A stretch of DNA of 64,000 bases, taken from Patescibacteria group bacterium. Lineage in GTDB: Bacteria; Patescibacteriota; Microgenomatia; UBA1400; PJMF01. The notes under the pieces are model-generated. The model did not search any database. It was not told the origin of the DNA and saw only the letters and a program-made list of their open reading frames with translations. Position 1 is the stretch's first letter. Every line of letters starts with the position of its first letter. The translations under genes and the position numbers were made by a program. The stretch covers positions 451,271 to 515,270 of the forward strand of contig BOKR01000001.1 in NCBI GenBank assembly GCA_016861085.1, read 5' to 3'. This document shows, piece after piece, positions 1,139 to 33,515 of the stretch.

Positions 1139-2242
1139 ATGGGTATAAGAATTAATAGCGTTGAGGATGAACGCGTTCACCTTCCTGACAATTTGAACGC
1201 TGTGAAATTTGGGTCTGTTTTTACTCGAAGAATGTATTTACAACAGTACATGGCTGAAAAGGGTTGGCACGCAGCAGTTATTGGTTTATGGGCCGATGTC
1301 TGGCCCCAGTTAGGACCAGAAGCTTCAGTGTTTCACTATGGGCAAGAGATTTTTGAGGGTTTAAAAGCATATCGTAGACCAGATGGAAATCTTAATCTTT
1401 TTCGACATTATGATAACGTGAGACGCTTTAATCGTTCTGCTGAGAGAATGGCTATGCAGGAAGTAAATGAACAGGACCATGCTGAAGCAATTGAGACACT
1501 TGTAAAGTTAGAACATGAATGGGTACCCAATCAGCCTGGTACGGCACTGTACATTAGGCCTACTCAAATTGCAACAGAAACTGCAATTGGGGTAGTTGAA
1601 AGTAGTTCCTATTTACACTATGTTATTTTATCTCCAGTTGGACCATACTTTCCAAGTGGTTTTAAGCCGATGGGAATTTTGGTGGAACCAAAATATCGAA
1701 GAGCTGTGGTAGGTGGAACTGGAGAAGCTAAAACTGGTGGAAACTACGCTGCAAGTATGATTGCTGGTAGAGAAGCAAAAAAAAAGGGGTTCTTTCAAGT
1801 ACTTTGGCTAGATGGCCAAGAAGGAAAATATGTTGAAGAGGCCGGTGCTATGAACGTTTGTTTTGTATATGGCAAAACAATTGTTACGCCTGCCCTTTCA
1901 GGAAGCATCTTGCATGGAATTACTAGAGACTCAATATTAAAACTAGCTCCGCAACTTGGTTACGAGGTTGAGGAAAGCAAAATTCCTCTAGAAAGAATGC
2001 TTGTAGATGTTGAGAATGGAACGATAGCAGAAAGTTTTGCTTGCGGTACCGCAGCCACAATTGCACCAATAGGAAAATTCGGCTATAAAGACAAAGAATA
2101 TGTCGTCAACAATGGTACTATTGGGCCTGTGACTCACAGGTTATATACTACTTTAACAAATATCCAGTATGGTCTTGAGCAACCACCTTTTCCTGACTGG
2201 ATAAAAGTGTTAGAAGTTGAAAAATCAAATAGAAAGAAGTAG
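1139..2242 (+). CDS. ilvE: Branched-chain amino acid aminotransferase (PLP fold type IV)
   Basis: 367 aa. It carries BCAT motifs: FEGLKAYR, YIRP, GGTGEAKTGGNYAAS, E.AGAMNVCFV, GSILHGITRD and FACGTAATIAPI. Confidence 0.85.
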   Translation: MGIRINSVEDERVHLPDNLNAVKFGSVFTRRMYLQQYMAEKGWHAAVIGLWADVWPQLGPEASVFHYGQEIFEGLKAYRRPDGNLNLFRHYDNVRRFNRSAERMAMQEVNEQDHAEAIETLVKLEHEWVPNQPGTALYIRPTQIATETAIGVVESSSYLHYVILSPVGPYFPSGFKPMGILVEPKYRRAVVGGTGEAKTGGNYAASMIAGREAKKKGFFQVLWLDGQEGKYVEEAGAMNVCFVYGKTIVTPALSGSILHGITRDSILKLAPQLGYEVEESKIPLERMLVDVENGTIAESFACGTAATIAPIGKFGYKDKEYVVNNGTIGPVTHRLYTTLTNIQYGLEQPPFPDWIKVLEVEKSNRKK

Positions 2243-2247
2243 TAATT

Positions 2248-3129
2248 ATGAAAATACGAAAAGCGCTGATTACTTGTGCAGGTTTTGGAACAAGATTTTT
2301 ACCTATCACAAAGACCATACAAAAAGAAATGTTACCGATCCTTACTAGACCAATGGTCGATTACGTGGTTACCGATTGTTTGGCAGCTGGAATTGATGAA
2401 ATTATCTTTGTTGTCAAAGAAAATGAAAACCGCTTGGTGGAACATTTTTATTCTGAATCAAGGTCTCTTAAACAACACATGGAGAAGCTTGGTAAAGCAG
2501 ATAGATATAGTAAGGCAGAAGTTAGGTTCCCTGAACATGTAAAGTTCAGGTTTGTAACTCAGACCATTGCTGATCGCTATGGCACAGCAATACCGGTGGA
2601 GCTTGCAAGAAAGTACTTGGAGGGTGAAGATGCATTTTTAGTGTTTATGGGTGATGACTTTATCTACAATCCGAATACGATTGAGGCTGCTGAAATGATT
2701 CGACTATTTGAGATGTCTGGCGCACAAGGGCTTGTGACTTGTATTACTAAACCAGAAGAGGAACTCTATCGTTATGGAGTTGCCCAAACAAGAAAAGATA
2801 ATGGCTTTACATTTTTGACGAATTTAGTAGAAAAACCTGTGACAGGTACGGCACCTTCTAACTTGATCAACATAAGTAAATACATTTTCACTCCAAAGAT
2901 TTTTGAGATACTTGAGAAACAAGGGCCAGATGCTCAAAGTGGGGAGTATTACGTCACAGATACCGCAACTGCATTAGCTCAGCAAAATCTAGTCGTAATC
3001 TATACCCCTGAAGGTAGATACCTTGATGGGGGGAACGTTTTGAATTGGCTCAAAGCTAATATTGTTATTGCCAAAGATGATCCAGAGCTAAACTCCGAAT
3101 TGCGAAAATTTATTAGTGAGGAATTTTAA
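2248..3129 (+). CDS. galU: UTP--glucose-1-phosphate uridylyltransferase
   Basis: 293 aa starting MKIRKALITCAGFGTRFLPITKTIQKEMLPI, the GalU nucleotidyltransferase signature (G-x-G-T-R-x-L-P), with a GalU-like length. Confidence 0.8.
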   Translation: MKIRKALITCAGFGTRFLPITKTIQKEMLPILTRPMVDYVVTDCLAAGIDEIIFVVKENENRLVEHFYSESRSLKQHMEKLGKADRYSKAEVRFPEHVKFRFVTQTIADRYGTAIPVELARKYLEGEDAFLVFMGDDFIYNPNTIEAAEMIRLFEMSGAQGLVTCITKPEEELYRYGVAQTRKDNGFTFLTNLVEKPVTGTAPSNLINISKYIFTPKIFEILEKQGPDAQSGEYYVTDTATALAQQNLVVIYTPEGRYLDGGNVLNWLKANIVIAKDDPELNSELRKFISEEF

Positions 3130-3339
3130 TTAGATTCCGCCAAAATAATAGAAACTCACGTACACGAATGTTGTAATTGAAGCAACAAGAATAATAATTT
3201 TTTTCGAAAAAAGATACAGACTTGGTCTAGATTTACCCTTTTTGGTAATTCCAAGAATTTGATTTATATCTTGGTTTGTGAATTGTGTTTCGTTTGAGTG
3301 TTCACTATCTGACGTAGCAGGCGAAGGATCCGGTTCCAT
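3130..3339 (-). CDS. Small hypothetical protein with a C-terminal hydrophobic (tail-anchor-like) segment; may be spurious
   Basis: 69-aa ORF lying 28 nt downstream of the preceding minus-strand gene. The C-terminus IIILVASITTFVYVSFYYF is TM-like. No homology is recognisable. Confidence 0.2.
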   Translation of the reverse strand: MEPDPSPATSDSEHSNETQFTNQDINQILGITKKGKSRPSLYLFSKKIIILVASITTFVYVSFYYFGGI

Positions 3340-3367
3340 AAGTTCAAGTATTATAGCAGAAGCACTT

Positions 3368-4162
3368 TTATTTCACAACTACGTACGCCTGCAACAGGTC
3401 AACTTTGGCGGTGATTGATTTTCCATCGACAGTACCTTTAAACTCTTTCCAAGCTTTTCCATCCCATCCCATGATTTTGAGATCACCTTCTTCATTTGCT
3501 CTCATGGTAAGCTCTGCTGTACCTGTGACTGCTGGTATTGTAGATAAAAAGTAAGGAGCTGAAACTACTGTTCCTTTTACATCATCAGGAAGACCTGAAG
3601 CGTCACCTATAATAGCAATACTTATTTTTGAAAGATCTGATCCGCTCATTTGAAACTTTGCGTCTGTGGAACCAAGCTGCGTAGCTTTCTCTTTGTTTTC
3701 AATGTACCTCCACTCTGCTTTGAGTGCATAATTTTCTTTACCAATAAATCTAGTAGTCAAGCTACCACCAGTTACATCCTCATGATATGAACATTTTCCA
3801 CCAGCACTACAGCTGCCCATGAGTTGTTTTGTAGATGCAGGTAAGGAAGCAAGTGAAAGTGAACCAAACACTCCCTGTTGTAATGAGCCTGATTTATATT
3901 CAAGCTCATATTCTGCCTCTGTTGCATCCTTTTTAAGGCTATCAACCTCGATAGTTAAATTACGACCGTCAGAATTTGGTTTTACAAGGATATATGGTCT
4001 CTCTGAGATATCTATAACATTAACAGGTTCAGAAATTTTTCGTTTTTTAAGTGTCTTTTCTTCTTGTGGTGCTTCAGTCTTATTTCCTTTGGTAAATAAG
4101 AATATGCCACCAACTATGACCAATAACACGACGCCAATTATAGGAAGTAATTTTTTATTCAT
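3368..4162 (-). CDS. Hypothetical membrane-anchored or secreted protein
   Basis: 264 aa. The N-terminus MNKKLLPIIGVVLLVIVGGIFLF is a TM or signal segment. The rest has no recognisable motifs. It sits 8 nt downstream of the glyQS stop and is probably co-transcribed. Confidence 0.5.
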   Translation of the reverse strand: MNKKLLPIIGVVLLVIVGGIFLFTKGNKTEAPQEEKTLKKRKISEPVNVIDISERPYILVKPNSDGRNLTIEVDSLKKDATEAEYELEYKSGSLQQGVFGSLSLASLPASTKQLMGSCSAGGKCSYHEDVTGGSLTTRFIGKENYALKAEWRYIENKEKATQLGSTDAKFQMSGSDLSKISIAIIGDASGLPDDVKGTVVSAPYFLSTIPAVTGTAELTMRANEEGDLKIMGWDGKAWKEFKGTVDGKSITAKVDLLQAYVVVK

Positions 4163-4169
4163 AATTTTT

Positions 4170-5588
4170 CTATACTAACATGGAAGTAATATGGCTTTCA
4201 AGTTCAGAGATTGGGATACGCACTTGTTCGGCAGTATCTCTACTCCTGAGTGTAACAGTATTATTTTCAAGACTTTCAAAGTCAACTGTAATACAGAATG
4301 GTGTTCCAATTTCGTCTTGATATAGATAGCGTTTTCCAATATTGCCTCTGTCATCCCAGAGGGTCTCAAACTTTTCTGATACTAAGCTAAAAACGCTCTG
4401 TGCTTTTTCAACTAATTCCGGCTTGTTTTTTAGCAGTGGGAATACAGCCACTTTATATGGTGCTAAACTTGGTTTTAGTTTTAGAACTACCCTATTTCTT
4501 TCTGTGTCATTCCAGTATGCGTCAGTGAGTACCATCAAAAATGCTCGGGCAATACCAAGTGCAGGCTCAATCACGTGAGGAACAAAAACTTCGTTTGTGT
4601 GGGGATCACGGTACTCAAGTTTTTCACCTGAATGCTTTATATGTTGTTTGAGATCGTAATCAGTTCTGTACGCTATGCCCCACAATTCTTTCCAGCCAAA
4701 AGAAAAGTTGTAGTCAAGATCATATGTATCTTTACTATAAAAACTTCGTTCACTATCTGAATGGCGGCGCCATTTAAGGTTTTTTTCTTGAATTCCTAAT
4801 GTTTGTGTAATAAATTGATGCATGGCTTGCTTCCAGGAATCCATGAGATCTTCCCATTTGGTTTGATTTGGATTAAAGAAATATTCAATTTCAGCTTGCT
4901 CAAATTCAAAAGTTCTAAAAACAAACTGGCCGGTAGTAATCTCATTTCTAAAGCTCTTACCCATTTGTCCGACACCGAATGGTAGCTGAACTCTGCTAGA
5001 ATCCAAGATTTGTTTGAAGTTAGAAAAAATTCCTTGGGCAGTTTCGCCTCTAAGATATACTTTTGCTTTGTCTCCGGCTACTGTTCCGATTGCAGTTTCA
5101 AAAAGGAGATTAAATGCTTTTGGTTCACTGATTGGATTGCCATCAGGACTCAAAATGTTGTGTTCTGTAATAAATTCAGCCATTTGTTCAATCGAAAGAT
5201 CCTCAACGACGAATGAATCAAATTGTGTATTTCCTTTTTCCTGTTGTTTTTTAATCCAAGTCTCAATCAAATGGTCAGCTCGGTATCTTTTTTTGCTCAC
5301 CAGATCATCAACTAATGGATCAGAGAAAGAACCGACGTGTCCAGATGCAACCCAAGTCTCTGGGTGTAACAGAATTTGGGAATCAAGACCAACCATGTCA
5401 GTTCTTCTATTAATAAAGGTTTTCCACCATGCATCTTTAATATTTTTGAGTAATTGACTGCCGAGTGGGCCATAGTCATATGAATTTGCAAGGCCACCAT
5501 AAATTGCAGATGTTGGATAGACAAATCCCCTTCTCTTACAGAGGCTTACAATTTCATCTAAAGTTGGTTGTTGCGTTTGCTGCGACAT
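4170..5588 (-). CDS. glyQS: Glycine--tRNA ligase (class II, alpha2 homodimeric type)
   Basis: 472 aa starting MSQQTQQPTLDEIVSLCKRRGFVYPTSAIYGGLANSYDYGPLGSQLLKNIKDAWW, the hallmark N-terminus of the dimeric GlyRS. The RBS AAAGGA lies 6 nt upstream. Confidence 0.9.
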   Translation of the reverse strand: MSQQTQQPTLDEIVSLCKRRGFVYPTSAIYGGLANSYDYGPLGSQLLKNIKDAWWKTFINRRTDMVGLDSQILLHPETWVASGHVGSFSDPLVDDLVSKKRYRADHLIETWIKKQQEKGNTQFDSFVVEDLSIEQMAEFITEHNILSPDGNPISEPKAFNLLFETAIGTVAGDKAKVYLRGETAQGIFSNFKQILDSSRVQLPFGVGQMGKSFRNEITTGQFVFRTFEFEQAEIEYFFNPNQTKWEDLMDSWKQAMHQFITQTLGIQEKNLKWRRHSDSERSFYSKDTYDLDYNFSFGWKELWGIAYRTDYDLKQHIKHSGEKLEYRDPHTNEVFVPHVIEPALGIARAFLMVLTDAYWNDTERNRVVLKLKPSLAPYKVAVFPLLKNKPELVEKAQSVFSLVSEKFETLWDDRGNIGKRYLYQDEIGTPFCITVDFESLENNTVTLRSRDTAEQVRIPISELESHITSMLV

Positions 5589-5653
5589 ATATTCCTTTTA
5601 TGTTCAGATACTATACTACCAGTATTTTGTGTTTTGGGGAATTTTTCTTGAAG

Positions 5654-5700
5654 ATAAAAATAAAAAAAGTCCCAAAACACTATTAGTTAGTGTTAGGGAC
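5654..5700 (-). terminator. Rho-independent terminator for the giant-protein/ABC operon
   Basis: On the minus strand the stem GTCCCTAACACT / AGTGTTTTGGGAC (about 11 bp with a small internal loop) and the loop AACTAAT are followed by TTTTTTTATTTTTAT. It lies about 175 nt past the permease stop. Confidence 0.6.
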
Positions 5701-5873
5701 CCTACCGGGCGGTTCCACCCTAGTTCACTCACAAATGCTATATTTTTGTCTGTATTTGTAAGTGCGCTTTATTATTTCGTTTTACTTGCTTGTAGAATGT
5801 ACAAGCAACCTTTTCCAAAGGGGGACGAAATGATCTTAACTTGTAAAAGAATTATAACACAGAATGCTCTTAC

Positions 5874-8402
5874 TTACTCATATCTGAGTGCATTAAGCGC
5901 AGATATCTTTGTAGCTCTGTATGAAGGATATAATCCTGTGGCAATGCCGATTATGAATGAAAGAGTGATGATGCTGATCGATAATATTAGTGGAATATCA
6001 ACAAAGTTAATGAGACCAAGTCCTTTGGTCACAGAGATTATTGAAAATAATAAGCTGAGTACTTGGCCGGTAACATACCCTAGTATTAGTCCAAAGAATC
6101 CACCTGTCAGACCCATAATTATTGACTCAGCTAAAAAGAGTCTTTGAATTTCGTTAGATTTCATACCAATTGCTTTCATTAAACCAACCTCTCTAGTTTT
6201 TTCGAGTAATGAAACAGTAAGTGTATTGAACATACCAAGGGCAGCTACCCCAAGAGCAACAAAACCGAGTAACGATAAGACAAACCTAACTGTACTAAAA
6301 AGTGAATTTATTTTCCCTACAGTGTCAACAACAGATGTTGTTTTGTATCCAAGTGATTCTATTGTTTGTCTTACTACCTTCAAATCATTTTGATTGAAGA
6401 CAACAACTTTAACTTGTGAATAATTTTTGATACCAAGTGCTTTAATATCGTTAAATGGGACATAATAAGCTGGAGTTTTATTATCAGGTATTATTCCAAT
6501 TATTTTGTATTCGACTGGTTCTGATTCAGCCTGGTATCCAGGTTCGTCAAAAAATTCTTCGTCTAATGTGAAGGTAGTTGTAAATTTTTGTCCAAGAGCA
6601 TCAGCTTCGTTAATAGTAAAGACGCTCAGAAGTGCACTGTTCACAATTGCTACTCTTTGTGCACCTGAAGAAAATGGAATAATATCTCTCTTTTGAGTTG
6701 TCAGCCCAGCTGATCCTGAGGAAATCGATACCCAGTCTATTGTTCCATCTGCTAACAGCGTAGACTGCAAAACACTGCCATCTGCTGTTATTATAGGCTC
6801 TGGTTCAGTTTCTTCCTCAGCAATGAGAGCACTCCCAGAGGCTATCTGAGCACTATCCGATGCGATACCCAAAACAGAGCCCGTCTGTTTTTGATGCAGT
6901 GGCGGTAGTGGGAGGTTTTCAATACGAGCTTTACTTGCTTTAATGTATGAGATTGCCTCAACTTGTTTTTCATTTTGGTCAACTTCTTTTAGATATAAAT
7001 TTACACAATCTTGGCAATCAAGTTTCCTCCAGAGGGGTAGTTTCGCTCGTATCCAGTATCCCAATTCCTTGCCATTTGGGTTTTTTCCAGCGTTACCCCA
7101 ACCACTTGGGTCATAGTATGATTCACCAAATATGAGTTCACCAGTAAAAATGGTAGTTTCTTTTTCTTGATTAGTGAATATGGTTGTTAGTTCGGCATTT
7201 TTAAATGAATCAGAATAAATTTGTTCATAAACATTTTTTGGGAGTGTAAATTCTACACTAGCAACTGCAGCACCCTCTTCAATTTTTTGTGGCTCATCAG
7301 AGAGAATTCTATATCTTGAGAGTGAAAGATCGGTTTGTTTAATATAGCCAGTCTCAATTGATTGGTTGTTTGATGTTCGCATTACAACATAGGTATCATC
7401 AACACAATCATAGTTTTGTTGTGTGCAAGTTTCTCTTCTCCAGAGAGGGAATGTATCTTTTATCCAAGGTGAATAAGAGTTATTAAAAACGTCATACCCC
7501 TCAGGAATGTCTGGAGCGTCATACTCTTGTCCCCACACTTCTACGGCGTCCTGTTCGCCAACAACTCTGGTTGTATACCCAATGATTTCTGAATCTGAGC
7601 TTGGTTCAGAGTAAACAGGTTTCCATGTTTGAGGATACAAAGAATATTTTATTTGAGAAATTTGTTTATTCATTTTTGCGCCATCATAGCGTTCAGTTTG
7701 CACACCTGCAACTGTTCCTGGTACTTTTTGATTTATACTAGATGTTGTGATGTCTTTATCATCAAATAGTTCGCCTTTTGTTGGCTGAATTGCGGATTCC
7801 TCCAAAAACTTTTTGGTTACAGCATATGCAATTGCATCAGAGATAGAATTATTGTAGTTAATTTTTGAAACAACTGATGCAACAGGAAGAACTGATTCCA
7901 CATTTTCTATTTTTGCAAATTCTTCAATGGTTTGATCATTCATTCTTAATGACGAAGCTTGACCAACAGTAACAATTATTTGTTTCATCTCACCTAGTCT
8001 TGCGACTCTAGAAATTACTAATTTTTGTGTTCCGTATCCGAGTGAAAGTAAAAATATAACTGAGCCAAATCCAACAGACATTCCACCTATGGTTATCATG
8101 GTCCTAGTTTTTTTTGCTGATAAGTGTCGAGTTGCCAAAGTAATTAAATCTAGAGATGAGATTTCACCCTCAACTTTTGTATTAAAAAAATATAGGGTTT
8201 TAGTTCTTACCTTTGAGACAAATTTTCGAAGAGGTTGTGCCCAAAAGAAAAGAAGTTTCTTATTCCCTAAAAACTTGAGTACCTGGAAGATTAAAAATAC
8301 AACAACTAGGAGAAAAAATTTAGAGAAAAAAAGTATTTCTTTACCAATCTTTATGTAGTTTACGGACCGAATGAATGAGAGTACTGATGCTATCTTTTTC
8401 AT
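5874..8402 (-). CDS. ABC transporter permease, FtsX/MacB family, with a roughly 600-aa extracytoplasmic insertion
   Basis: 842 aa. The canonical FtsX TM1 (MITIGGMSVGFGSVIFLLSLGYG) is present. The C-terminus REVGLMKAIGMKSNEIQRLFLAESIIMGLTGGFFGLILGY plus three further TMs is the FtsX signature. Between them is a large Cys-pair-containing domain (ETCTQQNYDC, LDCQDC). The start overlaps the ATPase stop by 4 nt. Confidence 0.8.
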   Translation of the reverse strand: MKKIASVLSFIRSVNYIKIGKEILFFSKFFLLVVVFLIFQVLKFLGNKKLLFFWAQPLRKFVSKVRTKTLYFFNTKVEGEISSLDLITLATRHLSAKKTRTMITIGGMSVGFGSVIFLLSLGYGTQKLVISRVARLGEMKQIIVTVGQASSLRMNDQTIEEFAKIENVESVLPVASVVSKINYNNSISDAIAYAVTKKFLEESAIQPTKGELFDDKDITTSSINQKVPGTVAGVQTERYDGAKMNKQISQIKYSLYPQTWKPVYSEPSSDSEIIGYTTRVVGEQDAVEVWGQEYDAPDIPEGYDVFNNSYSPWIKDTFPLWRRETCTQQNYDCVDDTYVVMRTSNNQSIETGYIKQTDLSLSRYRILSDEPQKIEEGAAVASVEFTLPKNVYEQIYSDSFKNAELTTIFTNQEKETTIFTGELIFGESYYDPSGWGNAGKNPNGKELGYWIRAKLPLWRKLDCQDCVNLYLKEVDQNEKQVEAISYIKASKARIENLPLPPLHQKQTGSVLGIASDSAQIASGSALIAEEETEPEPIITADGSVLQSTLLADGTIDWVSISSGSAGLTTQKRDIIPFSSGAQRVAIVNSALLSVFTINEADALGQKFTTTFTLDEEFFDEPGYQAESEPVEYKIIGIIPDNKTPAYYVPFNDIKALGIKNYSQVKVVVFNQNDLKVVRQTIESLGYKTTSVVDTVGKINSLFSTVRFVLSLLGFVALGVAALGMFNTLTVSLLEKTREVGLMKAIGMKSNEIQRLFLAESIIMGLTGGFFGLILGYVTGQVLSLLFSIISVTKGLGLINFVDIPLILSISIITLSFIIGIATGLYPSYRATKISALNALRYE

Positions 8403-9151
8403 AGTTTTTGGTTGACTGATAGTTTTCCACGTTTAGAAACGATCAAGGGTTTTAGACGAGCATCATTAGCTTTATATTCTCCAATAACGACACCATCAGC
8501 CATATTTATTGATTTGGTTGCTGCAGACAAATACTCAAGGTCATGTGTGACCATTATGACAGTTTTACCTTTTTTATTGAACTCTTTGAATAGATTCATG
8601 ATTTCAACACTAGCTTTTGAATCCAAGTTACCGGTTGGCTCGTCTGCAACAATGAGTGCAGGATCAGAGATTAGCGCGCGTGCAAGTGAAATTCTTTGCT
8701 GTTGTCCAGAAGAAAGTTCTGTTGGGGTCTGGTATGCTCCTTGTTTCATATCTACCATTTCAAGCATTTCCCAAGCCATCTTTTCTCTCAGTTCAAGTGG
8801 CATTCCTCTGAGTGTGAGTGGAAAGTATACATTTTCTATTACATTTAAAGATTTAACCCAATTAGATTGTTGGTATACCATACCAACTTGTTGTTTTCTC
8901 ATTTGTGCTCTGCCATCTTCATCATGTTCATATATTGATTTGCCTAAGAACCTAACTTCTCCTTTAGTTGGCTCTTCAAGACCGAGTAGTATATTTAAAA
9001 CAGTGCTCTTACCACAGCCTGATGGCCCAAACAGAATGACAAAATCACCTTCGTTGACGCTAAAGCTGACACCTTTTATAATTTCAACTTGTTGCGTGCC
9101 CAAAGTAAACGATTTAAAAATATTTGATAGCTCTAGGATTGTGTTAGGCAT
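8399..9151 (-). CDS. ABC transporter ATP-binding protein (MacB/LolD/FtsE-like)
   Basis: 250 aa with Walker A GPSGCGKST, the signature LSGGQQQRISLARAL, Walker B IVADEPTGNLD and an H-loop VTHD. Confidence 0.9.
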   Translation of the reverse strand: MPNTILELSNIFKSFTLGTQQVEIIKGVSFSVNEGDFVILFGPSGCGKSTVLNILLGLEEPTKGEVRFLGKSIYEHDEDGRAQMRKQQVGMVYQQSNWVKSLNVIENVYFPLTLRGMPLELREKMAWEMLEMVDMKQGAYQTPTELSSGQQQRISLARALISDPALIVADEPTGNLDSKASVEIMNLFKEFNKKGKTVIMVTHDLEYLSAATKSINMADGVVIGEYKANDARLKPLIVSKRGKLSVNQKL

Positions 9152-9153
9152 AA

Positions 9154-9543
9154 TTACTCTATTGTGCTCGGATCAAATGTTATAAAAAGTGGTTTTTTCC
9201 ATAAAAATCGACTATCTGATTCATTATGAAGTGTTATGTAAATGCCTTCAAGTGGAACACCGTCAACAACTACGGTGTGAATTTCACCAGGAGTACTACT
9301 TGTCTGTTCAATTCTATTTGTAACATTACTTTTTTTTGTGCCAGTTTTAATATACCCGATTGTATCGTGGTCAGTTTTCCAAAAAATTAATGCTTGATGT
9401 GGCTGAATAAAGGTAATTTCTAGAAAGTTATTTTTTTTATTTTCTGTGTAGTTAAAAATAAGAATTGAGAGCAACAATCCAATTAGTAATGAAATAATAA
9501 TAATGATTCGAAGTTGTCTTGGTTTCAGTTGGTGTTGTTTCAT
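9154..9543 (-). CDS. Membrane-anchored single FN3-like domain protein (resembles the purple-acid-phosphatase N-terminal FN3)
   Basis: 129 aa. The N-terminal TM is RIIIIISLLIGLLLSILIF. The segment ITFIQPHQALIFWKTDHDTIGYIKTGT...GEIHTVVVDGVPLEGIYIT resembles the FN3 units at the C-terminus of the neighbouring giant protein. It overlaps both neighbours by 4 nt (ATGA). Confidence 0.55.
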   Translation of the reverse strand: MKQHQLKPRQLRIIIIISLLIGLLLSILIFNYTENKKNNFLEITFIQPHQALIFWKTDHDTIGYIKTGTKKSNVTNRIEQTSSTPGEIHTVVVDGVPLEGIYITLHNESDSRFLWKKPLFITFDPSTIE

Positions 9544-12500
9544 TTTGCTAAAAATCCAAATATTGCAGACATGTTTGTCATTACGAGGTCGAGTGCATTT
9601 TCTGTTGCTTTTGGAGTGATCACAACCTTATCAATTGATTCAGCTTTATTATTAAACTCATCTTTTGAAATTGCTCTTAAATGATAGACCTTGCCAGGTG
9701 TTAATCCTGAAATTACGACTAAATGGTGGTTGGTGAGTGTTCCATCCTCTTGAGTTTTTTGAGAATATGTTGAACCACTTCCTTCACCAAACTCAATCTG
9801 AGCTGTAGCAGCTTCATCGGTGTTAAATGAAACTAATAGTTGAGCGCTAGCTACCTCATCTGTGCCTACTATTTCTCCTTCAACTTTTAGATCTGTGATT
9901 TGAGGAGGTCTTGTATCTGCTGAAGTGGTAACCTGTTGAATTTCTCCTGCTGCTTCGTTACCTGCGATATCCTTACCTTTTAGAATAACAGCATAAGTAG
10001 TTTGAGGTTCGAGGTTTGATAGGATCATTTGATGTTTTCCCTTTTTAAGTGCAATATTCACTTCATCTCTTGCTGAGGCTGGAGAAGATATTGGGTAGTA
10101 GGTTACAATTGAAGATACAGAAGTGTTTGATTCCCAGCTAACCAATAAAGTTGACTGGGCGGTTCCTTTTACCTGATTGATTTTTATATTTGATATCTTG
10201 GGTCTTGGTAAGGTTTCAAATGAATGAATTTCACCTTCATATTCTTCTCCTTCACTATCAAATGAGTTGATTTTGTAGTAATATTTGATGCCATCTGTGA
10301 GGTTGGTTAACTGTACGGTATGTGTTCCCTTACCTGTTCCTGTAACAATGTCAGTAATACCACCAAATGCCGAGGACTCACCGTAGTACACACGAATTCT
10401 TGCAGCATTTTGTGAGGTAAATTCCAGCAGCGCAAAATCAAGTCCAACACTTTTTACAGTCGCTTCTTCGGTTGTTGGTGGTGGTTCCGTGGAAAAGCTT
10501 AACTCACTAGACGATCCTGTGTTTCCGTCTTCGTCTGTCCACTTAGCTATGTAGTAGTATGTTGTTCCAGGAGCTAAATTAGAGAGAGTGAGTGAGTGAC
10601 TGGTAACTTGTTCAGAATTGGCAACTTCTTCATCAAAATACTCCCCTGAGCTTGTTCCGAATGCAATTTTTGAGTCAGCTGTTCTAGCAGTTGTCCAACT
10701 AACAACTGCTTTCTTTGTGGTAATACTACTAACTACAGGATCAGAGACAAGATCTGCTGGCACAATAAATTTACCATCAGGGTAAAGTGACACAATTTCT
10801 GAAAATGCTCCACAGTTATTTGTACTGTCACAGGCTTTTACTTTGTAGTAGTAGGTTTGTTGGGTTAAACCAGTATCAACGAATGAAATTCCACCACTTG
10901 TGGCTCTGTTGGTAAAGTTTACCCCATCCGTTGACCTATAGATTGAGTATGTACTTACTCCACTTCCAGTGTCAGATGGTGCTTCCCATGAAAGTGCTAT
11001 TTTCCAAGAGCTGGTGCTTTTAACCGAAACGTCAGCAATATCTATGTTTAAAGGAATTCCGGGAGCACTCGTGTTTGCGGTAAATGTTGTTTGTGCATAG
11101 TTAGAATAGTTAATATTCCCTGCTTCATCTTTTGATACTATGTAAAAAACATTTTCACCCGGAACAGTTGCGTATGCTCCAGCAATTAAATTTCTAACGC
11201 TGGTTGCAGTTGTAGTTGAAGCCGAAGGAAGTGCATTGATACTGTAGTAATACGATAAGTTTGCGGCAGAGCCAAAATATGTTCCAGTTGCAGGTGGATC
11301 CCATGAGAATGCAAATGAGTTGGCAGTATTGCTTGAGGGGGTAACAGTGAGGTTTACTGGCGGAGCTGGTGCATTGTCACTATTTACATAAAAATATGTA
11401 ACAGTGCTATAACTGCTGTAATTACCTGCAGCATCTTTAGTTCGAACAGAAAAGGTATTAACCCCAACTCTGTGTGATGGAATGTTATTTATTTCTGTTT
11501 CGCTAATACACTGGTCAGTTGCATACTCACCAGATTGAGCTCCTGTTTTATAACAGTAACTAGAGACAGGTGCGCCACTAGTAGTTGCCGTGTCCCAGGA
11601 AAAGTCAAAACTATCTATTGCACTATATCCTGATGGATCAGAAACCAAATTTGCTGGAGCTGATGGTGCTTCTCCATCATATTTGTAAATGAATGGATTC
11701 CAACTTTCGGCAGCAATATTCCCAGCATCATCAGTTGTTTTAATCAGTAAGTAATAATTTGACCCGCTGACCAAACCACTTGCTGTGTAGTCTGATTCAG
11801 TTTGAAGCTCTCCATCTTCAAATGGGTCAGCAGCTGCATTTGTTCCGAAATAGACATAGTAACCACTCACTCCCGAACCTGAACTCGTGTCTGAAGCACC
11901 ATTAGTTATTTCTGCATCAGGCCAATCAAAGTAAGGAGCTGTGTGGCTATACCAAGTATTGGTAACAATGGTTGATCCTGGTTCGTTGTTACTGTAGGCA
12001 CTAAATCCTGGAGTAAGTGGATTACTTGGAGCAGTAGTGTCACTAAAATAATTAATAGCATAACTATCTATAACTCCAGAATAGATGCCATCAGATGAGG
12101 TCAAAGTAAATTTAACTTCAATGTATCGAGCTGAAGGTGATTTAATTTGGTAAGTATAGGTTGTACCAAGTTGCTTTGTTGCTGCAACTGCAGTCCAGGA
12201 TGACCAATTAGTTGCATCTGAAGAGCTTCTTGTCTGAATTGAGAGGTTAGTGTTACTTGCCGATTCATATTCTACAACTAGGTTGGCCCATTTATATACG
12301 CTTGATAAATCATGTGTTTGAGAGGTGTACGTTCCTTCCTCTTCAAATGCACTAGTTGGTGTACTTTGAATGTAAGTATAAATACTATCTTGGAAACTAT
12401 TTGTTCCACCTCCAGTCAGCATAAAAATTTTATTGGTTCCATTACTTTCTGCAGAACCACCAGCAGAAATTCGTGCAGGTGAGTTGGGAAGTGTAGTCCA

Positions 12501-15500
12501 AGTATTTTCTATGATTGAATATTTAAAGAAATCAAAGAAATTTCCTCCTCTAGCAGCATACAGATAGCCATCACCACCATTGGTTAAAAATCCGTCGTTG
12601 TATACTGTAGTAGTCAGATCTGCAACAGCAGGATCACTCCAAGCATTTGCAGTAATATCATATCTATAAAATGGATTGTTAGCTACATTTTGACCTCGCA
12701 GCGTATAGAGGTAATTACCGTCTCGTGCTAATTCAGCACCATATCCCAATCCAGCTGGACTTGCCGTGAGAGCACTCCATTTCGTGCCACTACTACCTTG
12801 TGTGTCAAAGCGATAAAACTGTGTGCCTGTACCACCTCTATTCATATAAATATATCGTGAGCCATCATATACCATTGAAGTACCATAGTCTGTGTTTATG
12901 GGTGGTGGATCGCTAGTTTCCTCACTCCAAACGTTTGTTGCAATGTCATATACATAAAATTTCTGTACGTAAATTCCTCCTGTTAGGTAAATTTTGTTGG
13001 CAGTGCTGTCATATACGAGTGATGAACCTGTGTAAGTGCCAACAGGAGCAGTTGCTAATGGTGTGCTTGTTCCAGTAGCAGAGTTCCATTTGATAAATTC
13101 ATCGGAGAAATTTCCCCGTAAAATATAAAAATTGTCTTCATCACCTTTGAGAATATCTGCACCATAGTTTGCGTTTAGGTAACTGGTGCCTAAATATTCT
13201 CTGCTAAATAGCCCTCGATTTGGAATCATCCAGCTATCTTTATTAAGATTATATTTATAAACACTTGTTGAGTTGTTTCCGATAAATCCAAACAAATATT
13301 CACCAACAAGCTTTAATGAACCCCCATAGTAAAATCCATAAGGAGAGGAAGCAACCTGTGTCCATGCTTGTGCACCTACGTCATATTTGAACATTTTGTC
13401 GATTGAATAACCAGGCATATAGTACACAGTGTTTGTTTCAGGAACGTACTCAATAGATGAGCCTAAATATGGGAGTGAAGGCAAGTCTGGTAAAACTGTC
13501 CATGCGTTAGTGTTCATATTATAGACTGAGAAACCATCAAGAAGATTGCCCTGCGTTGCATAAATTAACTCGTTGGTTGTGTCTATTGTCAGATCTGCAC
13601 TAATATACGAAAGGTTTGAAATTGCTTCGTTTGTAGCACCAAAATCAGTATTGGACAAATTTTCCCATGTGTCATCAGCCGTGTTATAGCGCCAAAATGC
13701 ATCATCATTGTTTCCTCTCATCACATAAATGAATTGTTGCCCATCATATACCATAGCAGTGCCATAATAAGCTGTTAGCGGAGCGTCTGCTGCAGATTCG
13801 TCACTCCAGGTATTATCTTCAATGCTATATCTCCAGAATGAAGTTGTGTTATTTCCTCTCATGGCATACAAGTAGCCCTCTGGTCCTTCAACAACTCCTC
13901 CACCAATGTGAACAGTTGCTGGGGCGCTGGTGAGTGTTGTCCATGTATCTGTAGCTATGTCATAACTGTAAAAAGTAGTGTTGTTTGCACCTTGGAACAA
14001 GTAAAGTTTTCCTGATGATTCAACGTAGGCTACGTTTTTTGCACCATACTGTAATCCTGCAGGAGCATTTGTGAGTGTTTCTTCAACCCAAAAACCAGAA
14101 CTCCTACTCGCTAATTTAATTTGGTCATTTGCAACAGAAGTATTTGTCGTTGAACCGGTAAATTCAGCAGTAGTCCCAACCAGTAAACTTTGTGCAGGGG
14201 AAATTCCTGTGTAATTGTAAATGAATGTAGTTGTGGCATCACTGATATTTCCTGCACTATCTTTTGTTTTAATCCTTAAATAGTATGTTCCTGTGGAAAA
14301 TGGTTTGGTTACCAAGTATGTGGAAGCTGTTTGGTACTCTCCGACAATTTCGGGATCAGCAAGATTATTTGTGCCAAAGTAAACATAATAGCCGGCAACA
14401 CTTGTCTGTTCGTCTGCAGCTCCACTCCAACTAAAATATGGATTGACGTGTGTATAACTTTCGCCTGAAGTAAGCGCTGTTCCTCCGACCTCCTGAGAGC
14501 TACCAACTGTGGTATTAGGATTTGATGGGTCTATCGTATCGCCTACATATGAAATTGAAATGGAACTTAAAACAGGAGTGTTATTTGATCCTGAAGCAGC
14601 TAAGAGTATGGCTTTTACTTGAATGTATGTTTGTGCTGGCGAAATGATAGTCCCACCAGTAACTGTTTCCCAATCACTCCAGTTTGAACCATCAGTGCTT
14701 GTCCTAGTTTGAAAAGAAATGCTACTATCTGATGGTGTAGTCTGTTCACTAGAAAGTGACGTCCAGCTAGCGACAAACCCTAAATTTCGTGGTTCAGATA
14801 TCCAGGTACCAGAGCTAACAAAATTTTCAGCAGAAGGTGTGTAATTAAGGATACTTGTAAGTGAGTTTCCACGAAAAATATAAAATGATCCATTATCATC
14901 ATATTCTATTGAAGCACCTGCCCATGGACCAACATTTTGTGCTAAATAACCCGGGAGTGGCTCGAGTTTTCTCCAGGAGTCTGAAGCAATTGTGTATTCC
15001 CAGACATCAGTTTTATACCACCCAGCAAGTGCGATAACTTTCCCATTATGAAAAGCGATGTCAGTGCCATAGTATGGAGCAAATGGTGAACGGGCAAGTT
15101 CACTCCAAGTATTATCAGCAACAGAATATTTGAACCAGCGACTAATTCCAGTGCCAGCTAAGTAATAAACATCTGTTCCGTCGCTGACCATACGTGAGCC
15201 ATATGATGCTTCTGCATCAGTTGGCATATCAGTAACAGCAACATCATCCCAGCTATTACTTGAAATACTATAACGCCAGAATGAGAGGGTAGTAGCTCCT
15301 CTAGTGCCGTATATGTAATCACCACTTCCCGGATAGGCTAAAGAGGCACCAAACCTCACTGCAGCAGGGGTAGTAGCCATTGTTGTCCAGCTATTTTCTG
15401 CAGGGTCATACCTATAAAAATTTGAAGTATTACTTCCTTGAAAAAAATAAATATATGATCCGGCAACAATACCTTTAGTATCATCGTTAAAATTCGCAGG

Positions 15501-16664
15501 TGCGGTAGAAAGGGTTGACCAGGTGTTACTTGCAGTAGTGTATTTATAAAAAGTTGTAGTGTTTGCTCCTCTGGTGACATATAAATCACCATTGTAATAG
15601 ATACTATCACTACCAGTACTTAGGGTTGCCGGAGCATCTTGAGTCCCCAAGTATGTATCGTTGGTTGTATTGTATTTCCAAAAGTTATATGTTCCATTTC
15701 CTTGAAATATATACACATATGCATCACCACTATGATAGATTGCTCCGCCATATCTTGATAATCCAGGAAGTGCGGTTTTTGTTGACCAAGTACCAGTTGC
15801 AATAGTATAAGTATAGAAAGTATTGGTGTTGCCTTGTCTTGTTACAAAAAGGTCTGTGCCATCTGTGGTTATGTCGACCATTTCTGTCATAGTTGCAGGT
15901 ACATTAGTCAGTGCTGACCATGAATTAGCACTAATACTATACCTATAAAATGTCGCTGTGCTAATACCTCTTGGGGTGTAAATATAATCACCAACACGAA
16001 CTAAGTCAGCTCCAGCGCCAATTGTTGCTGGAGGAGCAGCAAGTGATGCCCATGAGTTTGATGAAGCTGTATATTTGTAGAAGTCTTGAGTATTGTTGCC
16101 TCTAACTGCATATAGATCTGTACCGTCAGTTGTTAGACTACCACCAGAATATACAAGATCAGGAATGTTGGCTAGGGTTTCCCAGGTATTTGCACTTATT
16201 GAGTATCGAGCAAATGTTTTTTGATAGCCACCAGCTAGTAGATAGACATATTCTCCTACTATTTCTAAGTCACCACCGGCATAAACACCTCTTGGGGTGC
16301 TTGCTAATTCATGCCATGTATCTGTAGCGGGAGTGTATTTCCAAAACGTTGTATCACCAACGCCTCGAGCAACGTAAATATTCGTACCATCTGATACAAA
16401 GGTGCTTCCAACATTAATTGCTAGATCTGGTGTTCTCCAATTACGAGCTCCCCACGAACCAGAGGCTTGTAATTGCATATCACCTTCTGAAATAGCTGTA
16501 GTTGTATTCGTTTTCGTACCTGCATTCCAATCAGCTCCTGAAGTAAAAGATGTTTCAGCTGCAAAAGAAACAGGCAACTTAAAAAATAATGCCAATAAAA
16601 AAAATAATAAAAATAAACAAACAACCCTCTTAAAAAAGTTGGTTTGTTTTACTGCGTAATTCAT
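9540..16664 (-). CDS. Giant (2374 aa) secreted surface protein built from Kelch-like β-propeller repeats and FN3 domains
   Basis: It has a Sec signal peptide (MNYAVKQTNFFKRVVCLFLLFFLLALFFKLPVSFA/AE). More than 30 repeats of about 47 aa fit the consensus G.DLY..RG..T..FY.Y....N.W..L...PA....G. Multiple FN3-like modules of about 95 aa follow, for example SKIAFGTSSGEYF...LAPGTTYYYIAKWTDEDGN. The protein is very rich in Ser, Thr and Asn. A good RBS (GAGGA) lies 9 nt upstream. Confidence 0.85.
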   Translation of the reverse strand: MNYAVKQTNFFKRVVCLFLLFFLLALFFKLPVSFAAETSFTSGADWNAGTKTNTTTAISEGDMQLQASGSWGARNWRTPDLAINVGSTFVSDGTNIYVARGVGDTTFWKYTPATDTWHELASTPRGVYAGGDLEIVGEYVYLLAGGYQKTFARYSISANTWETLANIPDLVYSGGSLTTDGTDLYAVRGNNTQDFYKYTASSNSWASLAAPPATIGAGADLVRVGDYIYTPRGISTATFYRYSISANSWSALTNVPATMTEMVDITTDGTDLFVTRQGNTNTFYTYTIATGTWSTKTALPGLSRYGGAIYHSGDAYVYIFQGNGTYNFWKYNTTNDTYLGTQDAPATLSTGSDSIYYNGDLYVTRGANTTTFYKYTTASNTWSTLSTAPANFNDDTKGIVAGSYIYFFQGSNTSNFYRYDPAENSWTTMATTPAAVRFGASLAYPGSGDYIYGTRGATTLSFWRYSISSNSWDDVAVTDMPTDAEASYGSRMVSDGTDVYYLAGTGISRWFKYSVADNTWSELARSPFAPYYGTDIAFHNGKVIALAGWYKTDVWEYTIASDSWRKLEPLPGYLAQNVGPWAGASIEYDDNGSFYIFRGNSLTSILNYTPSAENFVSSGTWISEPRNLGFVASWTSLSSEQTTPSDSSISFQTRTSTDGSNWSDWETVTGGTIISPAQTYIQVKAILLAASGSNNTPVLSSISISYVGDTIDPSNPNTTVGSSQEVGGTALTSGESYTHVNPYFSWSGAADEQTSVAGYYVYFGTNNLADPEIVGEYQTASTYLVTKPFSTGTYYLRIKTKDSAGNISDATTTFIYNYTGISPAQSLLVGTTAEFTGSTTNTSVANDQIKLASRSSGFWVEETLTNAPAGLQYGAKNVAYVESSGKLYLFQGANNTTFYSYDIATDTWTTLTSAPATVHIGGGVVEGPEGYLYAMRGNNTTSFWRYSIEDNTWSDESAADAPLTAYYGTAMVYDGQQFIYVMRGNNDDAFWRYNTADDTWENLSNTDFGATNEAISNLSYISADLTIDTTNELIYATQGNLLDGFSVYNMNTNAWTVLPDLPSLPYLGSSIEYVPETNTVYYMPGYSIDKMFKYDVGAQAWTQVASSPYGFYYGGSLKLVGEYLFGFIGNNSTSVYKYNLNKDSWMIPNRGLFSREYLGTSYLNANYGADILKGDEDNFYILRGNFSDEFIKWNSATGTSTPLATAPVGTYTGSSLVYDSTANKIYLTGGIYVQKFYVYDIATNVWSEETSDPPPINTDYGTSMVYDGSRYIYMNRGGTGTQFYRFDTQGSSGTKWSALTASPAGLGYGAELARDGNYLYTLRGQNVANNPFYRYDITANAWSDPAVADLTTTVYNDGFLTNGGDGYLYAARGGNFFDFFKYSIIENTWTTLPNSPARISAGGSAESNGTNKIFMLTGGGTNSFQDSIYTYIQSTPTSAFEEEGTYTSQTHDLSSVYKWANLVVEYESASNTNLSIQTRSSSDATNWSSWTAVAATKQLGTTYTYQIKSPSARYIEVKFTLTSSDGIYSGVIDSYAINYFSDTTAPSNPLTPGFSAYSNNEPGSTIVTNTWYSHTAPYFDWPDAEITNGASDTSSGSGVSGYYVYFGTNAAADPFEDGELQTESDYTASGLVSGSNYYLLIKTTDDAGNIAAESWNPFIYKYDGEAPSAPANLVSDPSGYSAIDSFDFSWDTATTSGAPVSSYCYKTGAQSGEYATDQCISETEINNIPSHRVGVNTFSVRTKDAAGNYSSYSTVTYFYVNSDNAPAPPVNLTVTPSSNTANSFAFSWDPPATGTYFGSAANLSYYYSINALPSASTTTATSVRNLIAGAYATVPGENVFYIVSKDEAGNINYSNYAQTTFTANTSAPGIPLNIDIADVSVKSTSSWKIALSWEAPSDTGSGVSTYSIYRSTDGVNFTNRATSGGISFVDTGLTQQTYYYKVKACDSTNNCGAFSEIVSLYPDGKFIVPADLVSDPVVSSITTKKAVVSWTTARTADSKIAFGTSSGEYFDEEVANSEQVTSHSLTLSNLAPGTTYYYIAKWTDEDGNTGSSSELSFSTEPPPTTEEATVKSVGLDFALLEFTSQNAARIRVYYGESSAFGGITDIVTGTGKGTHTVQLTNLTDGIKYYYKINSFDSEGEEYEGEIHSFETLPRPKISNIKINQVKGTAQSTLLVSWESNTSVSSIVTYYPISSPASARDEVNIALKKGKHQMILSNLEPQTTYAVILKGKDIAGNEAAGEIQQVTTSADTRPPQITDLKVEGEIVGTDEVASAQLLVSFNTDEAATAQIEFGEGSGSTYSQKTQEDGTLTNHHLVVISGLTPGKVYHLRAISKDEFNNKAESIDKVVITPKATENALDLVMTNMSAIFGFLAK

Positions 16665-31373: not shown

Positions 31374-31862
31374 CTAAAAGCTCAAGAGATCGAGAAGTCT
31401 TCCAAGTACCGTTTTATTTTCTTCGTTAGTTTCGATTTCAACGGGGATTACTAGGAGAAGACGCTCAATTTTAGTTGATTTTTTTGACGCAGCAGTTGTA
31501 GGAGTAACCTGCTGCATTTTTTCTGTGGCAGTTTTGGCGTCATCTACAGTCACTTTTTGTTCGACTTCTAATGTTTCGATTTCATTATCAATTTCAAACT
31601 CCATAGATTTGTCAAGTTCGGCAAAACTGGCATCAAGTTCTGCTTCTAAATCATCGAGTGAATCTTCCATTGTATCGTTTTTACCTAAGATACCTCCAGT
31701 TTTTGTAATTGCGTTTCCAAAGGCAAATCTATATGAAAACGTTATTGCAACAAGCACTGCAGCTACCAAGAAAAGTTTGTTTGATTGTTTCATAAAACTA
31801 TTTTGACACAGATTTTGTAGGCTGTACAAGCGGAACTGGGTTTTATTCAGTACATTTTTCAC
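31374..31862 (-). CDS. Hypothetical acidic membrane-anchored protein (the true start may be the internal Met)
   Basis: 162 aa with a TM at LFLVAAVLVAITF, then a D/E-rich and probably coiled segment. The annotated start overlaps the ruvB stop by 20 nt, so the internal MKQSN start is more likely. Confidence 0.4.
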   Translation of the reverse strand: MKNVLNKTQFRLYSLQNLCQNSFMKQSNKLFLVAAVLVAITFSYRFAFGNAITKTGGILGKNDTMEDSLDDLEAELDASFAELDKSMEFEIDNEIETLEVEQKVTVDDAKTATEKMQQVTPTTAASKKSTKIERLLLVIPVEIETNEENKTVLGRLLDLLSF

Positions 31863-32889: not shown

Positions 32890-32898
32890 AGTTGTAGT

Positions 32899-33471
32899 CT
32901 ATTTGTGTTTACCTAGTTCTTTTATTGTCATCTGAATTGCTTTCTCTAGTGGTAGGTCAGTAATATCAATAGTTTTAAGTGCTTGTGAAATATGTGTTTC
33001 ATCAAAGCCCATGCTTAACAATGCTTCCAGGATATCGGATTGTAGCTGGCTAAGAGGGGTGAGATCAACATCTTTAATGCCGCCAAGTTTAGATTTGAGA
33101 TCAATAATAATTTTTTGACCAGCTTTCTTACCAACTCGTTTGACACTCGTAAAAAATGCAACATCAGCATTTTGAATGGCAGTAACAATTTGCCCAGAGC
33201 CTTTGTTAAGTATTGCAAGTGCCGTAGTTGGCCCTACCCCAGAAACGCTGATGAGGAGTTTAAACAGTTCTTTATCATTGAGGGTGCTAAAACCATACAG
33301 TTCAAGGGCATCTTCTTTCACATGGGTATATATATGAAGTGAAATTTCTTTTGTATTTGCAGCTTGCGAAAGAACTTGATTGGTGGCTTTAACTCCATAG
33401 CCGACGCCACCAGTCATGATGATGAGTTCATTTAATATAAGAAGTGGTGTTCCAGTTAGATATGCGATCAT
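32899..33471 (-). CDS. ruvA: Holliday junction DNA helicase RuvA
   Basis: 190 aa starting MIAYLTGTPL, the RuvA N-terminus, with the helix-hairpin-helix region LISVSGVGPTTALAIL. The ruvC-ruvA-ruvB order is canonical. Confidence 0.85.
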   Translation of the reverse strand: MIAYLTGTPLLILNELIIMTGGVGYGVKATNQVLSQAANTKEISLHIYTHVKEDALELYGFSTLNDKELFKLLISVSGVGPTTALAILNKGSGQIVTAIQNADVAFFTSVKRVGKKAGQKIIIDLKSKLGGIKDVDLTPLSQLQSDILEALLSMGFDETHISQALKTIDITDLPLEKAIQMTIKELGKHK

Positions 33472-33515
33472 GAATCTCAGTATAACATTTGGGTAAGTTT
33501 TGGGAAGAGAGATTC

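Follow-up and report, generated by a model that had tools for sequence, protein, structure and literature searches.

A conserved gene module of Patescibacteria that pairs a predicted giant Kelch/FN3 surface protein with a type VII ABC system

The window analysed here (64,000 nucleotides of contig BOKR01000001.1 from a Patescibacteria group bacterium, to which all positions refer) carries a module of four minus-strand genes, which encode a giant secreted protein of 2374 amino acids (aa), a small single-pass membrane protein of 129 aa, an ATP-binding cassette (ABC) ATPase of 250 aa and an ABC permease of 842 aa. Gene order and sequence comparison across related genomes point to a conserved cell-envelope machine and not a chance neighbourhood, and the module in the window would be one member of a conserved, Patescibacteria-wide envelope module. 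The constant partner of the ABC system is a C-terminal cassette of the giant protein, consisting of a β-sandwich (J), eight FN3-like domains and a C-terminal helix. We lean towards the view that the ABC pair is a dedicated base of type VII, which uses this helix to hold or actuate a surface fibre exported by Sec. Much of bacterial diversity falls within the Patescibacteria, or Candidate Phyla Radiation (CPR), whose members have for the most part not been cultured and are believed to live attached to other cells; little is known about how they build their envelope and contact structures. The module is widespread in several CPR lineages, large and costly in ATP, yet its proteins carry generic database names ('hypothetical', 'FN3 domain-containing', 'ABC transporter permease').

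An alignment of the permease, searched against one representative genome for each species, yielded at least 567 relatives, and 80 loci were fetched, compared by tblastn with the parts of the window and tabulated. Adjacency was counted in the 76 loci with at least 1 kb of upstream sequence, as an open reading frame (ORF) that bears the C-terminal tail of the cassette and stops within 700 nt of the ATPase gene, upstream of it and on the same strand. This arrangement, with the ORF directly ahead of the ATPase-permease pair, was found in 69 of the 76 loci. The neighbouring genes vary, with RecO and an aminoacyl-tRNA synthetase in the window and ribosomal protein clusters, threonyl-tRNA synthetase or an acetyltransferase elsewhere. 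Five permease homologues (41-68% identity) all have a large FN3 protein encoded directly upstream of ATPase and permease. The preliminary description of this DNA had named chance as the alternative to a functional link between these genes, and the observed synteny rejects it. The cassette protein and the ABC pair recur in several CPR lineages, with the small protein limited to the Kelch-type loci described below. Lineage labels, taken from record titles of which many are unreliable for taxonomy, include Woese-, Pace-, Collier-, Shapiro-, Davies- and Dojkabacteria and WWE3; permease homologues are named Woesebacteria, Pacebacteria or Microgenomates. Many patescibacterial loci ('binchicken' records) are titled 'uncultured Pseudomonadales', 'Gammaproteobacteria' or 'Bdellovibrionales', and one locus (L007, CP011212.1; 37% GC) is titled 'TM6 bacterium GW2011_GWF2_28_16', its protein being named Pacebacteria elsewhere.

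The same synteny makes it hardly credible that the ABC genes encode an ordinary MacB-type efflux pump for antimicrobial peptides or drugs that stands beside a large surface protein by accident. The JGI name of some homologues ('ABC-type antimicrobial peptide transport system permease') and the MacB-like fold would suit such a pump, but the pairing persists across several lineages with variable neighbours, the genes are translationally coupled, and no gene for a membrane-fusion adaptor (HlyD/MacA) was found in the operon, the window flanks or the five related loci. The best distant permease match outside the CPR (24% identity), a duplicated MacB-type permease of Ktedonobacter, has no FN3 neighbour and was rejected as a member of the same module; the pairing therefore belongs to this clade and not to MacB pumps generally. 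MacAB-TolC, Spr0693-0695, YknXYZ and YtrEF share the permease architecture (MacB_PCD plus FtsX) and the ATPase clade. The module differs from them in an insert of about 370 aa in the outside domain of the permease, in a giant partner encoded in cis and in the lack of an outer-membrane duct in the locus.

The giant protein (9540..16664) begins with a predicted Sec signal peptide (aa 1-36, 16557..16664), recognised by a hydrophobic stretch at aa 8-38 and a signal-peptidase-I-type site without a lipobox, placed by eye between VSFA and AE; homologues have equivalent N-termini. Sec-dependent secretion, as first proposed, is thus predicted, and the ABC system would not be needed for export. After each of two Kelch blocks follow a J β-sandwich and then FN3-like domains. 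Kelch block 1 (aa 78-614, 14823..16433) and Kelch block 2 (aa 866-1431, 12372..14069) contain 12 blades each, as delimited with a blade hidden Markov model (HMM) built from the giant itself and, for block 1, with Pfam Kelch models. Between them lie the β-sandwich J1 and one FN3-like domain (aa 615-865, 14070..14822), an internal duplicate of the J2 region. The β-sandwich J2 (aa 1432-1597, 11874..12371), which is kept in Kelch-type and non-Kelch proteins alike, marks the start of the constant cassette; it is followed by the array of eight FN3-like domains (aa 1598-2345, 9630..11873; Pfam fn3 and Pur_ac_phosph_N) and by the conserved tail (aa 2346-2374, 9543..9629; ...ITPKATENALDLVMTNMSAIFGFLAK), predicted from the alignment of homologues and the hydrophobic moment to form an amphipathic helix.

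In Pfam the giant matches Kelch_1, Kelch_2, Kelch_3, Kelch_4 and Kelch_6 (Kelch_6 at E 1e-32, Kelch_1 at E 9e-25), fn3 (1e-16) and Pur_ac_phosph_N (2e-10), and its repeated blades of about 45-50 aa are those of a Kelch β-propeller. Together with ABC_tran, MacB_PCD and FtsX in the ABC proteins, all the families proposed at the outset were matched in the expected proteins. The first estimate of more than 30 blades was too high: the blade HMM gives exactly 24 (12 + 12), which probably make up four six-bladed propellers. The supposed richness in Asn sequons did not hold up either, as 36 N-x-S/T sequons were counted against 35 expected from composition, and a glycosylation-rich giant was rejected on these grounds. 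No useful Pfam family was found for the J β-sandwiches at E<=5 (the J1 region gave merely a weak Big_13 match), and a PDB sequence search with the whole giant returned weak Kelch matches alone.

The loci fall into two types. The Kelch type comprises 20 loci with Kelch repeats plus four incomplete contigs that keep the small protein (labels Woese-, Pace- and Dojkabacteria/WS6), in the order giant, small protein, ATPase and permease of about 810-870 aa; giants recovered as full-length ORFs measure 2357-2405 aa. In some Kelch-type loci (L005 with ORFs at 1561-4242 and 4223-8677, L021, L025) the giant appears as two ORFs or in shortened form, perhaps because the gene is really split, or through a frameshift or an error of assembly. 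The non-Kelch type comprises 55 loci (Collier-, Shapiro-, Davies- and Beckwithbacteria, WWE3 and others) with a big protein of 1000-2100 aa lacking Kelch repeats, no small protein and a permease that has one insert unit and measures about 630-790 aa; one locus (L023) is exceptional in having a long permease. At the N-terminus, the big proteins of this type bear a hydrophobic anchor of their own, marked by a conserved W/F-x-F-N motif. Just ahead of the hydrophobic segment, non-Kelch loci L006, L029, L032, L034, L039, L053 and L074-L085 show a conserved motif (...EPRFHFSRFQFNL..., ...KKITIAKWQFNLF...), which resembles a specialised signal-peptide n-region or signal anchor. Two modules per genome were seen in L029/L037 and L033/L035 (same contigs) and in L069/L073 (same assembly).

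A profile of the cassette retrieved 3659 proteins at E<=1e-30 among 1.84 billion cluster representatives. At least 140 of the top 150 representatives match the whole 634-position profile flush with the C-terminus, and the proteins among these 150 range from about 620 to 4400 aa in length. The heads of named cassette members (Pacebacteria, Dojkabacteria, CPR3, Kerfeldbacteria) include DUF2341, LamG-like and 'subtilisin' heads, and Pfam identifies FGE-sulfatase-like and Laminin_G_3 heads in non-Kelch examples. As the heads differ and the cassette is constant, the Kelch region is one interchangeable head and the cassette the constant partner of the ABC system. The claim of a dedicated MacB/FtsX-type ABC system tied to the giant is accordingly retained in modified form: the adjacency and a small protein paralogous to the terminal FN3 domain support it, but the conserved partner is the FN3 cassette with its helix and not the Kelch region.

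The C-termini of 74 distinct homologues were aligned and gave the tail consensus SxDxVxITPKATxNALxLVIxNLxxxFGFLG, which always sits at the very end of the protein or a few residues short of it. The tail, about 29 residues long, is amphipathic and of moderate hydrophobicity; its hydrophobic stretch includes polar residues that are conserved, and it was not matched by any NCBIfam sorting-domain model. The motif occurs a single time in the window and in most loci. The pattern found none in five loci that are short or have a variant tail, and L069 has two, in tandem tail-bearing genes (at about 700 and 5000) on the strand opposite to the ABC pair, which makes it an exception to the rule of one client. 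LPXTG/sortase, PEP-CTERM/exosortase and PGF-CTERM/archaeosortase signals likewise combine a short motif, a hydrophobic stretch and often a basic end at the C-terminus. The tail differs from these in being amphipathic and not a clean transmembrane helix, in having usually one client per module and in being paired with an ABC complex instead of a transpeptidase; no sortase-like gene was found in the window.

By tblastn, the FN3 array shares 59-85% identity with that of the window in Kelch-type loci, against 40-58% in the other loci. In Kelch-type loci the ATPase is 58-85%, the permease 37-68% and the Kelch blocks 42-86% identical, and whole giants of 84, 65 and 54% identity compare with permeases of 68, 54 and 43% in the same loci. 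By these figures the FN3 cassette is as conserved as the ATPase and more so than the permease. Such conservation, with a fixed length besides, would not usually be expected of a passive FN3 spacer or of an adhesin that evolves fast, and suggests extensive specific contacts; the high identity and fixed length of the Kelch-type giant argue against the latter in particular.

Conservation and composition also bear on whether the giant is a surface-layer (S-layer) or other lattice protein, with the ABC system as its assembly or anchoring device, which we regard as highly unlikely. The giant is acidic (isoelectric point 4.4), rich in Thr, Ser, Ala, Gly and Tyr and poor in Cys (five residues), its length is fixed across genera and a large glycan-biosynthesis region adjoins it in this genome, all of which would fit a lattice protein; S-layers have reportedly been observed on ultra-small CPR cells. 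However, S-layer proteins are usually poorly conserved between genera, in contrast to the 54-84% identity seen here, and heads that are swapped between lineages for domains of the lectin-like or protease kind fit a display stalk more readily than a lattice. In addition, neither Pfam nor NCBIfam detected SLH, LysM, LPXTG, RTX or any known S-layer anchor domain in the giant.

The small protein (9154..9543) has a single transmembrane (TM) segment near its N-terminus (aa 6-34) followed by an FN3-like ectodomain. A profile of 18 homologues matched the last FN3 domain of the giant in hhalign (probability 88%, E 2.9e-6), versus probabilities below 5% for the other FN3 domains, so that the small protein is best regarded as a membrane-anchored paralogue of that last domain. 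Its initial description as a membrane-anchored FN3 protein is therefore upheld by the TM segment and the profile match, though not by Pfam: searches of Pfam (to E<=5), NCBIfam and PDB profiles left the protein unmatched. It is present in every Kelch-type locus and in none of the others. Its sequence is the same as that of BroJett025_04450 from a Patescibacteria group bacterium.

The ATPase (8399..9151) belongs to the MacB/LolD/FtsE clade. It matches Pfam ABC_tran (3e-33) and has intact Walker A, signature, Walker B and H-loop motifs (GPSGCGKST, LSSGQQQR, LIVADEPT and VTHD); its best NCBIfam matches are FtsE, LolD, DarD and MacB, all below the equivalog cut-offs. The permease (5874..8402) matches MacB_PCD at aa 101-220 and FtsX at aa 711-834 in Pfam, and the two proteins are thus the ABC ATPase and FtsX/MacB permease that had been recognised at first. 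An AlphaFold2 monomer model of the permease (predicted local distance difference test 77.5, predicted template modelling score 0.45) contains long helices at aa 98-133 and 691-745, candidates for the stalk helices that prolong TM1 and TM2 towards the outside domain and underlie mechanotransmission in type VII systems. Foldseek aligned the model with LolE/LolC, MacB, Spr0695 and YtrF at E 3e-14 to 1e-10, then with BceB, HrtB and FtsX; the model thus has the type VII ABC fold (MacB/LolCE/FtsX, 'ABC3'). The protein consists of an N-terminal extension, TM1, an outside domain of about 575 aa and TM2-4, its hydrophobic segments being four core TM segments and one N-terminal hydrophobic helix. BceAB systems differ in a permease of ten TM segments and in the accompanying BceRS two-component system; two-component genes were not found near the module in the window. 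The N-terminal extension (aa 1-95, 8118-8402) comprises a hydrophobic helix of 31 residues (aa 16-46) and then a very basic segment, and is conserved in homologues.

The preliminary description had assigned the permease a Cys-containing extracytoplasmic insertion of roughly 600 aa. The cysteines are present, but it is the whole outside domain (aa ~124-697) that approaches this size, of which about 370 aa are inserted in the MacB-type core. The main part of the insert (aa 225-505, about 280 aa, 6888..7730) is composed of two repeated β-rich units with a Cys pair each, the result of an internal duplication (aa 290-357 with 435-490, E 2e-5). Of Cys 326, 333, 463 and 466, the first three are invariant across the family. 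The units may tentatively be called SH3b-like wall binders, a weak assignment: no useful Pfam family was found for the insert at E<=5, and Foldseek gave no significant match, the few of probability >0.3 being largely hydrolases. TagGH has an extracellular SH3b-like domain, but is a type V ABC system with a glycopolymer substrate and carries the domain on the ATPase subunit. The linker after the insert (aa ~504-569, 6693-6890) was modelled with low confidence and has invariant G508, V510, L511 and G512 and a nearly invariant W557, which suggests a short binding motif inside a flexible region.

The structural matches raise the question of sorting in the manner of LolCDE. The tail would then be a transient, membrane-embedded signal left in the outer leaflet after Sec export, which the ABC system extracts as LolCDE extracts lipoproteins, releasing the giant to the wall or surface layer; the complex would be an assembly factor and not a permanent base. 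We judge this unlikely, while noting that LolE and LolC with bound lipoprotein are the best structural matches of the permease, that the tail is laid out like C-terminal sorting signals (TPKAT motif, hydrophobic stretch, often a basic end) and that most loci have one signal-bearing protein per module. Similarity to the LolCE fold is common to all type VII systems, however, and a giant without a recognisable wall or surface anchor of its own (SLH, LysM and LPXTG unmatched) would be lost once released. Further, the wall-binding-like inserts are on the permease and not on the giant, and the whole 750-aa FN3 array, beyond the tail, is conserved like the ATPase, which fits a lasting complex better. 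LolCDE itself resembles the module in handling the membrane-associated end of a Sec-exported protein from the outer face. It is a system of diderm bacteria with a LolC/LolE heterodimer, N-terminal triacyl groups and hand-over to LolA, in contrast to the single permease gene, monoderm-type lineage, proteinaceous C-terminal helix and single client in cis found here; the lolCE model scored 62 bits against a cut-off of 362 and LolD 196 against 308.

The nearest functional analogy is FtsEX, with EnvC-AmiA/B in Escherichia coli, PcsB in Streptococcus pneumoniae, CwlO in Bacillus subtilis and RipC in mycobacteria. Like the system proposed here, it is a type VII complex that does not transport its partner; its outside loop binds a Sec-exported protein, ATP-driven mechanotransmission follows, and there is a link to the cell wall. 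It is nonetheless quite improbable, in our assessment, that the module is an FtsEX analogue which regulates wall remodelling or division, with the giant in place of EnvC, PcsB, CwlO or RipC. FtsE is the best NCBIfam match of the ATPase, the tentative SH3b-like inserts would be typical of wall-active proteins, and mraZ lies 5 kb from the module in this genome. Small membrane cofactors are known from FtsEX-CwlO of B. subtilis as well (SweC and SweD). Against this, the equivalog cut-offs were widely missed (FtsE TIGR02673 200.5 bits against 264.85; FtsX models 22-30 bits against 225-255), the outside domain is five times the size of the FtsX loop and has a MacB-type core with extra inserts, and the five related loci with examined gene content show no proximity to the division and cell wall (dcw) cluster. 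The partner is a Kelch/FN3 protein with a conserved C-terminal helix, and searches of Pfam, NCBIfam and PDB sequences detected no coiled coil, hydrolase or hydrolase-activator domain in the giant or the small protein. The order partner-ATPase-permease is conserved here, another difference from FtsEX, and some genomes have two modules with different heads (L029/L037, L033/L035).

Type VII ABC systems are mechanotransducers that act from the outer face of the membrane, with roles in lipoprotein extraction, hydrolase activation and the pushing of substrates into adaptors (PMC11466899). In the ABC-held fibre that we favour, the giant would cross the membrane by Sec and not through the ABC system, and the ABC dimer would form its membrane base, capturing the C-terminal helix along with the last FN3 domain next to it. 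The permease inserts may brace the dimer against the wall. ATP-driven mechanotransmission, as in other type VII systems, would load, hold or move the FN3 stalk, and the stalk would present a ligand-binding or enzymatic head beyond the wall. The small protein may occupy a second, symmetry-related site of the dimer or serve as an extra membrane anchor. As first suggested, the system may display, anchor or actuate a surface appendage, perhaps for host attachment by an episymbiont.

Several points weigh against the ABC-held fibre. The contact between giant and ABC system is inferred. The moderate hydrophobicity of the tail might equally suit a transient sorting signal instead of a permanent handle. 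The non-Kelch subfamily lacks the small protein, which is therefore not essential to the core mechanism. Lastly, strict adjacency is broken in 7 of the 76 loci, 5 of which have a tail-bearing ORF elsewhere in the 10-kb flank. The direction and purpose of the ATP-driven movement, the binding of the wall and the ligands of the heads are likewise points that we infer.

A broader and more speculative proposal, which we consider rather doubtful, is that the tail helix (...ITPKATxNALxLVIxNLxxxFGFLG) is a new sorting or docking signal with the MacB-type ABC system as its dedicated machine. The module would then represent a CPR-wide, ATP-powered pathway of display or actuation, in which interchangeable heads (Kelch, LamG, DUF2341, lectin-like, protease) sit on a constant FN3 stalk that is loaded, extended or retracted from the cytoplasm, as a contact apparatus for hosts or substrates. 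RTX and LapA adhesins with type I secretion are similar in that a giant repeat-rich protein with a C-terminal recognition element and an Ig/FN3-like stalk with ligand-binding modules is encoded beside its own ABC system. Type I secretion, however, uses an HlyB-type ABC protein, an adaptor and TolC for substrates with RTX repeats and no Sec signal, whereas here the giant has a Sec signal and no RTX match and the ABC system is of type VII.

No published description of the module was found in the literature on surface and ABC proteins of CPR, Patescibacteria and Microgenomates, and the module lacks those hallmarks of FtsEX, LolCDE, MacAB-TolC, BceAB and type I secretion for which it was tested, in keeping with the initial remark that no characterised system has this architecture. 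The novelty would lie in the client and the docking element of a type VII mechanotransducer. If the ABC system does hold or move a fibre through the helix, this would add a new task to efflux, lipoprotein extraction, hydrolase activation and target protection among type VII systems, provide a recognisable C-terminal tag for finding surface-displayed proteins of CPR, and offer a concrete target (tail, ABC base and heads) for the study of CPR attachment. Head domains that are candidate ligand binders could also be mined with the constant cassette as a marker.

The four minus-strand ORFs were all found at the coordinates given previously. The giant ORF cannot be due to chance, because it extends over 7.1 kb in DNA of 36% GC and has full-length homologues elsewhere. 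ATGA overlaps had been claimed for every junction; they are present between giant and small protein and between ATPase and permease, but the small protein and ATPase genes are separated by a gap of 2 nt (TAA-tt-ATG). In the three Kelch-type loci with compared gene calls, neighbouring genes are likewise coupled, either overlapping or separated by a few nt. Long opposite-strand ORFs at 8412-9185 (+, 257 aa) and 5629-6147 (+, 172 aa) overlap the ATPase and permease genes and were treated as their shadow ORFs.

As described before, a terminator-like structure follows the permease gene. RNA folding predicts a hairpin and then a U-tract (U7AU5) at about 5703-5653 of the minus strand (5653..5703), with an interrupted stem of 15 pairs; a 91-nt segment folds at -26.4 kcal/mol (z -2.0). 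The hairpin was seen by folding alone and was not reported by a scan for terminators with consensus patterns. Directly upstream of it, at 5704-5724 of the minus strand, is a second GC-rich hairpin (CUAGGGUGGAACCGCCCGGUAG) without an Rfam match. The gap between the permease gene and the aminoacyl-tRNA synthetase gene is 285 nt, and tRNA and Rfam searches of the whole window, this gap included, found none.

On the other side of the module, 17871-63462 is a region of about 45 kb occupied almost without interruption by genes for surface-glycan biosynthesis. They encode DUF4012, a Bac_transf priming transferase, NTP transferases, many GT4 and GT2 and two PMT_2-type glycosyltransferases, two Wzy_C proteins (one of 1121 aa, 39870-43235), an ABC-2 Wzm/Wzt-like pair, a HisF/HisH-like pair, epimerases, a flippase and a cytidylyltransferase. 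The products of these genes might decorate or glycosylate the envelope that the giant is predicted to cross. A block of RuvC, RuvA and RuvB genes is located in the middle of the glycan cluster, at 31843-34046, and these, together with MraZ, RecO and the class II aminoacyl-tRNA synthetase, are genes typical of Patescibacteria genomes.

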